Shown piece by piece: positions 1,375 through 9,748 of a stretch of 35,884 nucleotides of DNA. Position 1 is the stretch's first letter, and the number at the start of each line of letters is the position of its first letter. The notes beneath the pieces were generated by a model. That model saw only the letters and a program-made list of their open reading frames with translations. It searched no databases and was not told where the DNA came from. Location of the stretch: the IMG/VR virus record IMGVR_UViG_3300021431_000053; one strand, given 5' to 3'. The DNA comes from a virus. The translations under genes were made by a program, and so were the position numbers.

Positions 1375-2217
1375 CTACTTTAGAAGCTTTCTTGTATTTG
1401 AATCAATAGAAAGATATGTAATTAAATATCTATTTTCTTCGATTGCTGAAGAATTTGCAAAACATTTACTCTTGATTATCTTGTCATGCTTCTCCTTGCT
1501 TACGGTCACTGTGTCAATTACATTTACATTCATCAGTTGATTTTTGTATGTTTTGCTGTGGCATCTACTTTCTATTATTTTTCCCGATTCGTCTTTTTCA
1601 ATGATTCTCCTTATTGGCATAATATCCTGATTATTTGTGCGTGGGTTGTGATTTCGGAATGCAATGATATTGGATATGCAAAAATAATTAGAATCATTCT
1701 TCTTGCTTATACATATGTTTAAAACGTATTGCTGAACATGATATGATGCAATGAAGTCAGGGATAAGCTTGGTTTTACCTCTGAATTTGTTAACATCAAA
1801 ATAGTGCCATTCTCCTTCGGTCAATGCTTTCATAATGAAAGGAAATGAAAGAACTCTGATTCTTGTTGTCTCGTTGCTCCAGGCTCGGCCATTTTTTGAT
1901 AACTTAAGGATATCTAATGTGATAATGCTCTTTTTCATGTTCTTATAAGCGTTGATACCATTGAATGCCCCTTCAAACTTTAGCTGCTTGTTATGGGATT
2001 TTTTATCGTAGAATTCGTGGATGTCCAGTATATGGCTTACTGCCTTTGCCTCACAGTAAACTTTAAATGTCATGCCATCATCCATCTCAACAAATATTTC
2101 ATGGTTCTCTATTCGACTTTCAAAGAAATTACAGTAATCCTTTAATGTTATGTACTGATCATCTGGGATGATGCCTTTATTTATGCAATTTTCAATATAA
2201 TCTGTATGATCTTCCAT
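1375..2217 (-). CDS. Hypothetical 280-aa accessory protein with no recognised family; candidate effector/toxin
   Basis: Long ORF in a visibly AT-rich block. I place the start at ATG 2217, four nt after GGAGG (2222..2226), rather than the TTG at 2232 used by the ORF track. I recognise no catalytic motif with confidence. Confidence 0.75.
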   Translation of the reverse strand: MEDHTDYIENCINKGIIPDDQYITLKDYCNFFESRIENHEIFVEMDDGMTFKVYCEAKAVSHILDIHEFYDKKSHNKQLKFEGAFNGINAYKNMKKSIITLDILKLSKNGRAWSNETTRIRVLSFPFIMKALTEGEWHYFDVNKFRGKTKLIPDFIASYHVQQYVLNICISKKNDSNYFCISNIIAFRNHNPRTNNQDIMPIRRIIEKDESGKIIESRCHSKTYKNQLMNVNVIDTVTVSKEKHDKIIKSKCFANSSAIEENRYLITYLSIDSNTRKLLK

Positions 2218-2228
2218 CTTTCCTCCAA

Positions 2229-2266
2229 ACAAAAAAACACCAGCTTACTAGGCTAGTGTTTTTTTA
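2229..2266 (-). terminator. Intrinsic terminator (A-tract/stem/T-tract, bidirectional shape) directly abutting the RBS of the 280-aa ORF
   Basis: Minus strand reads AAAAAAACACUAGC-CUAGUAA-GCUGGUGUUUUUUU, followed by GUUUGGAGGAAAGAUG. The stem is 9 bp with one mismatch. Confidence 0.65.
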
Positions 2267-2455
2267 ATAAGTGCTAGCGAGTGCATCAGATGACTGACCA
2301 CTCCACCCATAGGATACTTGATGCGTCCCCTCCAGGGTCATGGCTGAGCAGGCCAGGGGATACGGTGCTAGCTCCGTATTCGCTTTCTTGCGAACTCGAC
2401 AGTCGACGAGAACGAAACGGCATTCGGCTCAAGGACAAGCCTTTATGTTTTCGTC
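2267..2455 (-). ncRNA. GC-rich structured ~190-nt leader or ncRNA lying between a promoter and a terminator
   Basis: This is a compositional island, roughly balanced in GC, inside about 570 bp of AT-rich non-coding DNA. Local helices on the minus strand: UUCGC-AAGAAA-GCGAA, UACGG-8 nt-CCGUA, UCCCCU...AGGGGA enclosing UGGC-7 nt-GCCA, and GCAUCA...UGAUGC. I do not recognise any Rfam family. Confidence 0.4.
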
Positions 2456-2460
2456 ATCTC

Positions 2461-2491
2461 ATTTATAACACTAGTGATATTCAGTTGTAAA
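2461..2491 (-). promoter_or_regulatory. Sigma-70-type promoter TTTACA-17 nt-(TGt)TATAAAT driving the structured leader
   Basis: Minus strand reads TTTACA (plus 2486..2491), a 17-nt spacer ending in TG, then TTATAAAT (plus 2461..2468). Confidence 0.5.
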
Positions 2492-2571
2492 GCATTATTA
2501 TATTTTTTTGGATCCTAGAATTCATTTATGGCCATTAGGCACAGCATAAAACGCCTTCATGGGTAAAATAT

Positions 2572-2595
2572 TGTGTTCTTAAATGTGTTCTTAAA
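2572..2595. repeat. Perfect tandem 12-mer TGTGTTCTTAAA x2; possible operator upstream of the leader promoter
   Basis: Read directly: 2572..2583 equals 2584..2595. Confidence 0.8.
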
Positions 2596-2610
2596 TATTA
2601 TCTTTAGTTA

Positions 2611-2636
2611 TGTAGAACATTGCACTACGCTGTAAT
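2611..2636. repeat. 26-nt element TGTAGAACATTGCACTACGCTGTAAT (copy 2), followed by the inverted repeat CTGTAATT-6 nt-AATTACAG (2630..2651)
   Basis: 22 of 26 positions match the copy at 1301..1326. The adjacent 8-bp inverted repeat is perfect. Confidence 0.7.
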
Positions 2637-2650
2637 TAATCTAAATTACA

Positions 2651-2737
2651 GGTAAAATGAAAGAGCCCTCACAGGGAGGACTCTTCTTCAGTGGCGCAAT
2701 GGCCGTTGTGTTTAACAGTGGCGTATAGCCGTTGTTC
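2651..2737 (-). ncRNA. Candidate ~85-nt sRNA made of two tandem ~27-nt repeats plus its own terminator
   Basis: The promoter is at 2744..2772. On the plus strand the repeats are GTGGCG-CAATG-GCCGTTGT-GTTTAAC (2691..2717) and GTGGCG-TATA-GCCGTTGT-TCAAC (2718..2743). Terminator is AGAGUCCUC-CCUGU-GAGGGCUCU followed by UUCAUUUU (plus 2651..2684). No ORF. Confidence 0.45.
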
Positions 2738-2743
2738 AACTGT

Positions 2744-2772
2744 ATATTATCCTATAACTGAAGATTTGTCAA
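2744..2772 (-). promoter_or_regulatory. Near-consensus sigma-70 promoter TTGACA-17 nt-TAATAT
   Basis: Minus strand TTGACA corresponds to plus 2767..2772 and TAATAT to plus 2744..2749, with a spacer of exactly 17 nt. It lies about 30 nt downstream of the MazF-like stop codon. Confidence 0.55.
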
Positions 2773-2800
2773 TCCCCTTGATTTACCTGGCTTTTGCCAC

Positions 2801-3334
2801 TTATTTCTTATTTGATTTATCTTTTACAAATAGCTCAATTAACTTAGATTCAATCAAATCAAGTATCAGGTCATCAGCAATCAATTTCTTTAGTGGGTCA
2901 TATTTACTTGTTGGTGGTAGGATTTTGTATTTACTTATCGTTGTAATGTTCTGAACAAGAGCGTAGGACCTCTTATTCTTTTTGATATACATTTCGGCAA
3001 TATCTTTTAATTCGTTCAGGTTTTTCGTTACTTGATTAATATCTTCTTCGTTATATTGCAGTCCGTTGTCATCTAGATCTTGGAATATTCTTGTGAATTC
3101 TTCTAGTTGACTAATGAGTAATGGGAATATTTGTTTGGATACTATGTTTCCGACATCTAAATAATACGCTTTATTCTTAGAACTCAACGGAACGACTGTA
3201 AGAACACCATTTCCTGGTGAATCTTTCTTTGTAAGGACAATCGCGAAATGCTTTCCTCTTAGTTCGCTTCCTGTTGAAGGATTGAAGTTAACAAGGATAA
3301 TTTGTCCTCTTTTGTACTTTTGAAACCTAGTCAT
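2801..3334 (-). CDS. MazF/PemK-fold toxin-like protein (177 aa) with a ~60-aa helical insertion
   Basis: The N-terminus KRGQIILVNFNPSTGSELRGKHFAIVLTKKD...VLTVVPLSSKNK matches the MazF/PemK signature (RGD-I-V-x-V-x-F-x-P-x-x-G-x-E-x-x-G-x-R-P-x-(V/I)-V-(L/V)...VVPLTS). SYALVQNITTISKYKI and the C-terminal helix LIADDLILDLIESKLIELF align with the distal MazF core. I place the start at ATG 3334, seven nt after AGAGG, rather than the TTG at 3370 in the ORF track. Confidence 0.7.
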   Translation of the reverse strand: MTRFQKYKRGQIILVNFNPSTGSELRGKHFAIVLTKKDSPGNGVLTVVPLSSKNKAYYLDVGNIVSKQIFPLLISQLEEFTRIFQDLDDNGLQYNEEDINQVTKNLNELKDIAEMYIKKNKRSYALVQNITTISKYKILPPTSKYDPLKKLIADDLILDLIESKLIELFVKDKSNKK

Positions 3335-3414
3335 GAATTTACCTCTTTTTTTGAAATGATGATTTGTCAAATTTAAAAACGCTTAGCTGTTTGTAAAGCT
3401 GTTTTATAAAATCC

Positions 3415-4059
3415 CTAGAACTCCTTTATGGCCCTCTTGAGGATGCCGATCACGCGAAAGTTTGTGTTGTTCAGGTCAATTACAATGGGATCGTAGCTGG
3501 GATTCATGGGAATGAGCTGGATGAAGGTCTCGCCCTGCCTGAACTTCTTGCATGTCGCTATGCCGTCGTCTATGCAGAACGAACCGATCTGTCCGCTCTC
3601 TATTGAGCTGGACTTCTTGAATATGAGAAGGTCTCCGTCGTTTATGCCTGCATTGATCATGGAGTCACCGCTTGCGATCTGGGCGAAGTAATCGGATTCG
3701 GAGCCGGCAAGCCCGTTGGAAACGACCTCTATCGTATCGACAAGGTTGTCATCAACGAACATGCCGTTTCCACATGAGATGTCACCATATAGCGGAATGG
3801 TGATGAAGGAGACGGGATGCGGTGTGCTTAGGTTAGATGGCTTGTTTTCAACTAGATCGGATTTTTTTATTCCTAAATAGTCAGCTAAAAGTTGTACTTT
3901 ATCCATTCGTGGATATTTTTTTGCATTAACCCAGTCACTGATTGTGCTTGTTGTTATTTTCAAGTCTCTTGATAAATCAGATTGTGTTTTGTTATTAATT
4001 GATAAATAGTGTCTTAAATTTTTCGAGAATATTTCTCTTTCTTTTTGTTTGATATCCAT
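3415..4059 (-). CDS. CI-like repressor: XRE-family HTH plus an S24 (LexA-like) autopeptidase domain
   Basis: The HTH is KTQSDLSRDLKITTSTISDWVNAKKYP. The S24 motif GDSMINAGINDGDLLIF has a downstream Lys (CKKF). I prefer the start at ATG 4059, eight nt after GAGG; the ORF-track start at 4065 is only two nt from the SD. Confidence 0.85.
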   Translation of the reverse strand: MDIKQKEREIFSKNLRHYLSINNKTQSDLSRDLKITTSTISDWVNAKKYPRMDKVQLLADYLGIKKSDLVENKPSNLSTPHPVSFITIPLYGDISCGNGMFVDDNLVDTIEVVSNGLAGSESDYFAQIASGDSMINAGINDGDLLIFKKSSSIESGQIGSFCIDDGIATCKKFRQGETFIQLIPMNPSYDPIVIDLNNTNFRVIGILKRAIKEF

Positions 4060-4080
4060 ATACATTACCTCACTAACTAA

Positions 4081-9598: not shown

Positions 9599-9690
9599 GT
9601 GTACTAAAAACTAGCACACTAGTGTACTAAAAATTAGTACACCACTGTACTAAAAACTAGCACACTAGTGTACTAAAAATTAGTACACCC
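9599..9690. repeat. Iteron array: four 23-bp units (two alternating variants, equivalent to 2 x 46 bp), each an inverted repeat
   Basis: GTGTACTAAAAACTAGCACAC occurs at 9599 and 9645. GTGTACTAAAAATTAGTACAC occurs at 9622 and 9668. The arms GTGTACTAA/TTAGTACAC are perfect. Confidence 0.85.
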
Positions 9691-9748
9691 CCATCTATAT
9701 ATATAAGAGAATGTATAGAGAGTGTAAGAGAATGTAAGAGAGTGGGTG
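9691..9748. other. Putative DNA-unwinding element: (TA)n tract plus four helically phased ~10-bp repeats
   Basis: CTATATATATAA is followed by AAGAGAATGT / AGAGAGTGTA / AGAGAATGTA / AGAGAGTGGG. Confidence 0.55.

Follow-up and report, generated by a model that had tools for sequence, protein, structure and literature searches.

A MazF-fold protein and a downstream two-hairpin small RNA form a candidate type III-like toxin–antitoxin module in Firmicute prophages and phage-inducible islands

A stretch of viral DNA of 35,884 nucleotides (nt) (IMG/VR record IMGVR_UViG_3300021431_000053; the whole stretch is hereafter called the window) carries a gene for a 177-amino-acid (aa) protein of the MazF/PemK fold, which stands behind a cI-like repressor gene and is followed by a small RNA (sRNA) unit composed of a promoter, two hairpin repeats and a terminator. 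The protein and the sRNA very probably form a functional two-part module, and on balance the sequence evidence leads us to favor a type III-like toxin–antitoxin (TA) or abortive-infection module in which the gene order is reversed and the antitoxin has its own promoter. An initial annotation of the window had proposed such an inverted layout with a downstream, separately promoted sRNA, and we recovered this architecture in 50 of 50 homologue loci. The finding is real and extends to a large, medically relevant family, which comprises 133 clusters (50% identity) at E ≤ 1e-30 and 712 clusters at E ≤ 1e-10.

A two-hairpin RNA unit follows the toxin gene

The sRNA unit begins with a sigma-70-type promoter located 28 nt past the stop codon of the putative toxin gene, close to the 30 nt or so first noted, and its transcription start is predicted at ~2737. 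The promoter and terminator calls reported here are consensus matches only. The promoter is followed by two tandem repeats with a start-to-start spacing of 26 nt; the two repeats of the initial annotation were thus found again, whereas the period of 27 nt that it gave did not hold. The repeat pattern occurred exactly twice in the 35.9-kb window, compared to 0 expected occurrences in 100 shuffles. Both repeats are predicted hairpins, not demonstrated pseudoknots, and the first is composed of a lower stem (AACA/UGUU), a 2 × 2 internal loop (AC/AC), an upper stem (GGC/GCC) and the loop UAUAC. The terminator that had already been noticed closes the unit and has an 11-bp stem, and the predicted RNA of ~84 nt (hairpin, hairpin and terminator) folds with −25.8 kcal/mol and z = −3.2. 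As no terminator lies between the toxin gene and the RNA, and the sRNA terminator ends both transcripts, the cI–toxin mRNA would carry the hairpins in its 3ʹ untranslated region (UTR).

In the RNA class closest to that of the window, the outer pair of the upper stem was GC in 11 sequences, AU in five and unpaired in none, which is a compensatory change, and 85.6% of the cells were paired, compared to 25–47% in slid registers. Covariation within this class is modest, and we do not claim strong covariation; the case for an RNA structure rests mainly on the conservation of the architecture across sequence classes.

No Rfam family reached its gathering score in the window, and at E ≤ 10 the interval 2200..2850 gave only matches far below gathering scores; likewise, no Rfam family was found on the equivalent RNA in 23 homologue loci. 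The S. aureus RNA SprC/Srn_9340 was rejected as the same RNA, being located in the nuSAbeta island. Antisense (type I-like) pairing with the toxin translation start was no better than that of shuffled sequences (z −0.16 to +1.58, six loci), and neither other copies of the hairpins nor antisense targets were found in the 35.9-kb phage genome. A 32-aa open reading frame (ORF) with a TTG start (2641..2739) was also discarded, as it overlaps the RNA and its frame is disrupted by loop-length differences among the homologues.

The RNA unit is conserved across homologue loci

Homologue loci were drawn from metagenome assemblies, GTDB genomes, IMG/VR and GenBank phages. A promoter, two (sometimes three) short hairpins and a terminator were present in all 50 distinct regions downstream of homologues with 27–100% identity, and the sRNA promoters of these loci were located −17 to +42 nt from the stop codon, with 8–12 of 12 consensus positions matched. 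The linked loci include those of Erysipelotrichaceae and Holdemanella gut phages, S. aureus phages 92 and 77, pneumococcal phage 34117, S. pyogenes-type prophages, islands resembling S. aureus pathogenicity islands (SaPI-like islands), lactobacilli and an Apilactobacillus plasmid. Among the close relatives (48–65% identity), the motif CAAnnGC-N4-7-GCnAnTG was found on the same strand 50–100 nt past the stop codon, which the sRNA promoter may overlap. The distant relatives (27–40% identity), among them staphylococcal, streptococcal, SaPI-like, lactobacilli and plasmid forms of 200–330 aa, had unrelated hairpin sequences, an identical architecture and an AU-rich linker before the terminator.

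When 40 distinct RNA bodies were folded without the terminator, the mean z was −1.70 and 95% of the values were below 0 relative to dinucleotide shuffles, the kinship of the loci being uncorrected in these figures; 25 bodies folded as exactly two hairpins and nine as three. Within each locus, hairpins 1 and 2 were alike in their loops and flanks, and their stems differed by compensatory changes. For phage 92 the stems were GCCGC/GCGGC and GUCGC/GCGAC with identical loops, and for phage 34117 the hairpins were GGAG-UUUAG-CUCC and GGAU-UUUAG-AUCC. Further, the sequence class of the hairpins changed together with the protein clade.

The proteins encoded next to the gene, on the other hand, were not constant. 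No small plausible ORF flanked the gene on either side in the window, as had been stated at the outset, and none of 69 distinct homologue contexts held a MazE-like gene (MazE/PemI; AbrB- or ribbon-helix-helix (RHH)-type), so that the concern that homologues might always carry a conventional MazE-like gene was not borne out. The 69 distinct upstream neighbors were repressors with a helix-turn-helix (HTH) and an S24 domain (with at least four different HTH domains), HTH-only repressors, tyrosine integrases, lipoprotein-like or membrane proteins, RepA, an HSDR_N protein and an ImmA/IrrE protease, at gaps of −4 to 458 nt. The integrase was inconstant as well: it was inverted in locus L007, located upstream in the SaPI-like loci and absent from the plasmid locus L021, and was either a tyrosine or a serine recombinase. 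Considering that the upstream neighbors vary and that the RNA unit was present in 50/50 loci, the RNA is the only constant partner of the protein, and the cI-like repressor is, judging from these contexts, an upstream neighbor and not a conserved partner in the module.

Some loci showed additional features around the module. In L022–L043, the repressors upstream of near-identical cassettes share the S24 C-terminal domain (...GRAVAFQSDVI) and have at least four unrelated N-terminal HTH domains, a clear case of recombination within cI that swaps immunity specificity. In L007 (~3706–3760) and L008 (~3712–3790), as well as in L009–L011, the hairpin motif recurs as a solitary third copy 60–100 nt past the sRNA terminator; this copy is enclosed by an outer stem and has its own terminator, e.g., ggtagaaTACAACGACTTAACGTCACTGgctacc. 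At the same position, L025-type loci have two hairpins with CGCCAA loops, and reading the window sequence revealed no equivalent of the third copy. In streptococcal prophages, the Rfam family Spy779816, a small RNA of S. pyogenes, was found on the opposite strand in L057 (3685–3771, minus; 81.8 bits) and L102 (3257–3340, minus; 43.8 bits, which is under the gathering score); it lies between the terminator of the two-hairpin sRNA and the integrase start and is thus antisense to the integrase leader. Just 3ʹ of the module, a skipping-rope RNA was found in L046 (3782–3852, plus), and the RatA antitoxin RNA and rli28 were found in the Apilactobacillus plasmid locus L021 (3930–4266).

The protein has a MazF fold interrupted by a helical hairpin

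The N-terminus of the 177-aa protein reads MTRFQKYKRGQIILVNFNPSTGSELRGKHFAIVL. The Pfam family PemK_toxin (PF02452) matched aa 8–57 only, corresponding to profile positions 1–50 of 109 (E 1.4e-11), with a score of 45 bits versus a cutoff of 23.1 bits and with only the N-terminal half covered. An AlphaFold2 (AF2) model, built from an alignment of 35 sequences, had a predicted local distance difference test (pLDDT) score of 91.1 and a predicted template modeling (pTM) score of 0.82, with MazF-like strands at aa 11–16, 28–33, 44–51 and 131–134 and a C-terminal helix at aa 155–169. When this model was compared with the PDB using Foldseek, the top 50 matches were all MazF-family toxins (probability 1.0; target-normalized template modeling score 0.64–0.76). 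These matches, which cover MazF proper, MoxT/PemK and YdcE/EndoA, included MazF-mt1, mt3 and mt9 of M. tuberculosis, MazF of E. coli, S. aureus, B. subtilis and D. radiodurans, and MoxT of B. anthracis; ToxN was not among the top 50. In a profile search of PDB sequences, 'GSElkGkHFAIVL' aligned with 'GSEannQRPAVVV' of MazF-mt9, and 'TVVPLSSK' with 'TVVPVTSN'. The model, the Foldseek matches and the Pfam match agree on the SH3-like β-barrel fold of MazF, as first suggested from the N-terminal signature.

The MazF core is interrupted by two long antiparallel helices (aa 64–93 and 96–118), which are located between the β-strand 'YYLDVG' and the strand 'SYALVQNITTISK'. The helical insertion, estimated at about 60 aa in the initial annotation, is present in the model with a length of ~55 aa; its sequence and length vary freely across the family, and it reaches ~200 aa in the long forms. 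Among 32 members with 27–62% identity, R9, G22, E24, H29, T46, V47, P49, L50, T132, S134 and K135 were invariant, and the MazF groove motifs (GxE24, H29, TV-P-L-[ST]-S-K and T-[IV]-S-K) were unchanged. An invariant core with a freely varying insertion is the pattern of a putative conserved RNA-binding or catalytic groove plus a variable appendage. Most family members also bear an N-terminal extension of ~55 aa, which is absent from the protein of the window. We infer that the protein is a dimeric endoribonuclease toxin; its toxicity, RNase activity and RNA binding are predicted.

The family corresponds to PHROG 1412 ('antitoxin mazE-like'; E 7e-41, full length), and tblastn retrieved 104 phage records with a family protein. 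In the databases, the family is labeled either 'type II PemK/MazF toxin' or 'MazE-like antitoxin', and the latter label is wrong because the protein has the MazF fold. The protein had no match in PADLOC, and in NCBIfam it had only sub-threshold N-terminal MazF matches, with no model dedicated to the family.

Proposed mechanism

We propose that the toxin mRNA either is part of the repressor transcript or starts at a weak promoter of the gene itself, so that the toxin level would stay low, and that it ends at the sRNA terminator with the two hairpins already included. The promoter at the toxin stop codon, presumed to be strong and constitutive, would then supply an excess of free sRNA with the same two hairpins, a task for which canonical type III systems use a leaky terminator before the toxin gene. 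Each hairpin may act as a pseudo-substrate that fills one RNA groove of the symmetric pair in the MazF-like dimer, and the inserted helical arm may help to grip it. Upon transcription shut-off by a superinfecting phage, or upon loss of the prophage or element, the short-lived RNA would decay, and the freed nuclease would cut cellular or phage RNA, so that the infection would be aborted or the cured cells killed.

In its full form, the proposal describes a previously unrecognized type III-like TA/abortive-infection family in which a MazF-fold nuclease with a helical arm would be neutralized by a downstream, separately promoted two-hairpin sRNA, with one hairpin per active site of the dimer. This family would be widespread in Firmicute prophages and phage-inducible islands (S. 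aureus, S. pneumoniae and S. pyogenes), and phages carrying only the sRNA would use it as an anti-defense decoy. For the combination of all these elements, we consider the chances to be even.

Evidence against the toxin–antitoxin reading and alternative explanations

Several observations weigh against a type III-like TA module. The T-tract of the terminator in the window is imperfect, and the hairpin units of 20–30 nt with stems of 3–7 bp are small compared to the pseudoknot repeats of ~36–45 nt in type III antitoxins. For the closest RNA class, 19 of 500 shuffles reached the covariation score (0.160), and the hairpin core shows sequence conservation and not covariation, with only one clean compensatory pair. 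Two more observations of this kind, concerning the catalytic residues of the protein and RNA units without the gene, are given below with the alternatives that draw on them.

At the position of the catalytic Arg of MazF (R29 in E. coli), the family has the invariant His (H29), so that the protein could be an RNA binder and not a nuclease. The position of the catalytic Thr (T52 in E. coli) is occupied by Ser/Thr (S51-S52-K53 here), based on hidden Markov model alignment with MazF-mt9 and E. coli MazF. Such a His and Ser/Thr pair would be compatible with catalysis, although it is not the canonical pair. In the alternative that the His supports, the protein is a non-toxic RNA-binding or RNA-processing protein with specificity for sequence and structure, the hairpin RNA is its ligand or substrate, and the two form a ribonucleoprotein regulator of lysogeny, which could control int/xis expression, for example, or how stable the repressor mRNA is. 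Such a regulator would suit a cassette that in most phages lies between repressor and integrase genes, and hairpins that double as the 3ʹ UTR of the cI–toxin mRNA with no terminator intervening; the long helical insertion is atypical for MazF toxins. However, the linkage with the integrase is as variable as described above, the position is a typical moron or defense site, E24, [ST]52, K53 and the T-I-S-K motif from the region of the MazF active site are kept, and His is able to act as a general acid/base in an RNase. We consider this regulator unlikely.

The RNA units without the gene came from a reverse search, in which IMG/VR was scanned for ACAACGGC-N3-6-GCGCCAYTG. This search gave 74 pattern matches, 50 of which were chance matches in coding DNA with G+C ≥ 0.43 that had no second repeat, promoter or terminator. 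Eighteen of the 24 genuine AT-rich units were located directly 3ʹ of the gene, two were cut off by the locus end, and four were orphans that carry the RNA unit without a MazF-like gene. These four IMG/VR contigs represent one phage lineage (L119, 3300045988_044284; L135, 3300029377_000120; L139, 3300045988_139067; L153, 3300029379_000160), and their order is a cI-like repressor, a 26-aa hydrophobic ORF (MQIALDIIQIVLDVVIIVCLVKSMNK), a terminator-like hairpin and the unit of promoter, hairpins and terminator; the 26-aa peptide itself looks like a toxin of the type I kind. An orphan locus and a locus with the gene were homologous only over a block of 260 nt with 95% identity, which starts at the RNA promoter. 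The existence of the orphan lineage and the recombination of this block imply that the RNA unit is a module of its own, able to persist, and perhaps to act, alone.

The orphan loci are the best argument for an independent function of the RNA, in which the sRNA would be a trans-acting regulator of host or phage mRNAs and a co-travelling moron, and the protein an orphan toxin-like gene that is controlled otherwise. An RNA with its own promoter and terminator would be expected in that case. We nevertheless regard this explanation as quite improbable: the linkage held in 50/50 loci down to 27% protein identity with co-change of hairpin class and protein, duplicated hairpins with identical loops are unlike a base-pairing seed, and searching the 35.9-kb phage genome revealed no complementary target. 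Moreover, an orphan antitoxin is equally well explained as an anti-defense or immunity element, and the orphan units could be an orphan antitoxin or an anti-defense decoy.

Two other explanations fare much worse. The initial annotation had also raised the possibility that the XRE/S24 repressor doubles as the antitoxin, so that its RecA-stimulated self-cleavage would free the toxin. The system would then be of type II, its antitoxin an unconventional one, and the RNA would be irrelevant. Other type II families do have antitoxins of the HTH type; in the window, the gene follows the HTH and S24 repressor at a distance of 80 nt with no terminator between them, and the repressor and toxin ORFs of phage 34117 abut with 1 nt between them. 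However, repressors with at least four unrelated HTH domains precede toxins that are ~80% identical to P0011, close relatives lie behind HTH-only repressors without S24 at gaps of 205–300 nt (with a terminator-like hairpin in L007), and other toxins follow integrases, lipoproteins, RepA or the ImmA protease, with no single upstream protein conserved, which makes an antitoxin role of the repressor very improbable. Just as little can be said for repeats that act as DNA, e.g., as operators near attP, integrase arm-type sites or other direct-repeat binding sites of a protein: the two repeats are direct, 26 bp apart and near the integrase end of the prophage, but they are always on the toxin strand between promoter and terminator, keep their hairpin potential across sequence-unrelated classes, occur on a plasmid as well as with integrases of both the tyrosine and the serine type, and show a compensatory G:C to A:U change in the upper stem.

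Layout and surroundings of the locus

The cassette features in the window, from the cI-like repressor to the terminator, are all on the minus strand (Table 1), and the order in the 5ʹ to 3ʹ direction is cI, spacer, 177-aa ORF, promoter, two repeats, terminator, a 285-aa ORF and a tyrosine integrase. On the opposite side of cI, a perfect divergent promoter leads to cro-like, anti-repressor and HNH genes. As the cassette is flanked by cI and these divergent genes on one side and the tyrosine integrase on the other, it belongs to the lysogeny module of a temperate phage. The transcript of the cI-like repressor probably carries the toxin gene. In agreement with the gap of about 80 nt and the lack of a clear promoter described initially, the spacer has no terminator and only a weak promoter-like site (TTTACA-16-TAAATT, 9/12, 3397..3370; consensus match), and a Shine–Dalgarno sequence (AGAGG) is located 8 nt ahead of the toxin ATG.

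Table 1. Coordinates of the cassette features in the window
Feature	Position	Strand	Basis
MazF/PemK-fold protein, 177 aa, putative endoribonuclease toxin	2801..3334	-	Pfam PF02452, AF2, Foldseek, PHROG 1412
Inserted antiparallel helical hairpin, aa 64-118, ~55 aa	2981..3145	-	AF2 secondary structure, family alignments
Sigma-70-type sRNA promoter, TTGACA-17-TAATAT, 10/12	2744..2772	-	consensus match
Hairpin repeat 1, core ACAACGGCTATACGCCACTG at 2735..2716	2714..2736	-	folding, repeat search
Hairpin repeat 2, ACAACGGCCATTGCGCCACTG (ACAAC-GGC-CAUUGC-GCC-ACUG)	2689..2709	-	folding, repeat search
Intrinsic terminator, 11-bp stem (2686..2660) then CAUUUUA	2651..2686	-	consensus match
cI-like repressor, HTH + Peptidase_S24	3415..4065	-	Pfam Peptidase_S24 E 4e-22, HTH_26/HTH_3
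Spacer from cI stop to toxin start, 80 nt	3335..3414	-	

The toxin and sRNA cassette is bracketed by a 20-nt direct repeat with 18/20 identical positions (3414..3433 and 2514..2533, minus strand). Both copies read as the 3ʹ end of cI, i.e., ..AIKEF in the former and ..AINEF in the latter, each followed by the stop codon, and relative L006 has a larger remnant ORF of the S24 domain 3ʹ of an identical cassette. The duplicated cI 3ʹ end and the S24 remnant of L006 suggest insertion or exchange of the cassette by recombination at the cI end.

Within the window, the −35 region of the sRNA promoter (TTGACAAATCTTCAGTT, minus strand, 2756–2772) recurs as TTGACAAATCATCATTT at 3354–3370, just 5ʹ of the toxin Shine–Dalgarno sequence and with no −10 element after it; the recurrence could be a shared operator or could be a coincidence. 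A perfect tandem duplication of TGTGTTCTTAAA (two copies, 2572–2596) lies between the sRNA terminator and the cI-end remnant and could be a protein-binding site. The 285-aa ORF (1375–2232, minus) between the cassette and the integrase is missing in relative L003; Pfam, PHROG, NCBIfam and PADLOC all gave no match for it, and a role as a second moron or defense gene is conceivable. Next to a bidirectional terminator (2231–2265), a GC-rich block of ~200 nt (2266–2470) stands in otherwise AT-rich intergenic DNA; it is kept in L001–L006, with 67 nt deleted in L003 and L006, and was unconvincing as a structured RNA (folding z ~−1.4 on both strands; no Rfam match). Farther away, iteron-like tandem repeats (GTGTACTAAAAACTAGCACAC; 23/46-nt period, ~4 copies, 9599–9744), followed by 10/21-nt repeats, are probably the replication origin of the phage. 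A megablast search of the locus against the INPHARED phages gave no match.

Discussion

If the RNA is the antitoxin, then MazF, the best-studied fold of type II toxins, has been captured by an RNA antitoxin, and the type II and type III TA systems would be connected in evolution. The orphan PemK/MazF genes in prophages of major pathogens and of gut Firmicutes would no longer lack a partner, and a function could be tested for them, with defense against superinfecting phages or retention of the prophage or island as candidate roles, and the module would be relevant to phage therapy against staphylococci and streptococci. The RNA would also be a new family for Rfam, and the module would offer a compact pair for protein–hairpin recognition of which nature supplies many specificity variants. 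The loci with the RNA alone would be candidates for natural anti-defense elements, comparable to the pseudo-ToxI of phage phiTE.

Neither an RNA partner of a PemK/MazF toxin nor functional work on the phage 'PemK-like' gene was described in the open-access papers and bioRxiv preprints searched; the literature retrieved concerned type II PemIK, ToxIN/CptIN/TenpIN and AbiF/AbiV only. The phage genes annotated as PHROG 1412 or, at NCBI, as PemK/MazF belong to the same family, such as ORF020 of phage 92, ORF017 of phage 77 and the pneumococcal 'PemK domain phage protein'. The Staphylococcus and Streptococcus phage records examined give the PemK/MazF name only and annotate neither the partner RNA nor a function.

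Compared to MazEF/PemIK, the module shares the toxin fold and the motifs GxE...(R/H)P/FA(V/I)V at the N-terminus, VP(x)[TS][TS] and (I/L)(R/T)T(I/V)(D/S)K. In contrast to these type II systems, it has no MazE/PemI gene in the 69 contexts and hence no adjacent co-transcribed small protein antitoxin, a helical hairpin of 55 to ~200 aa is inserted into the fold, and the catalytic Arg is replaced by the invariant His. Type I systems differ further, as the RNA and the ORF here share a strand without overlapping, and the toxin, a 177-aa MazF-fold protein predicted to be soluble, is not a small hydrophobic peptide.

The module resembles AbiF/RCd22 and AbiV in concept. These are single-protein RNases of Firmicute prophages and plasmids that are neutralized by an adjacent noncoding RNA via direct binding (PMC12373285, PMC13064643), and they likewise combine a prophage RNase with a noncoding RNA that has two motifs. 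However, their HEPN/Abi_2 toxins are unrelated to MazF, and their noncoding RNA is located upstream of the toxin gene.

The closest comparison is with type III systems (ToxIN/AbiQ, CptIN and TenpIN), in which, as here, an endoribonuclease (a putative one in our case) of the wider Kid/MazF/CcdB-like structural superfamily lies beside a short noncoding RNA of repeat units, with no protein antitoxin. Two-repeat arrays are normal for CptIN and TenpIN (PMC4885055, PMC13064643), and an adjacent tandem-repeat noncoding RNA was found both in the window and in 50/50 homologue loci. Carriage on mobile elements and an RNA excess over the toxin that is built into the design of the locus are also held in common, and the role that we propose for this module, abortive infection or retention of the element, is that of type III systems. 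Unlike type III systems, the module departs in both toxin family and layout: the toxin is a PF02452 MazF/PemK-fold protein with a helical insertion and not a member of the ToxN/AbiQ, CptN or TenpN families (no ToxN_toxin match in Pfam at E ≤ 1, and none in PADLOC), and the RNA lies downstream with its own −35/−10 promoter, whereas the type III RNA lies upstream and shares one promoter with the toxin gene, with a leaky terminator before the toxin.

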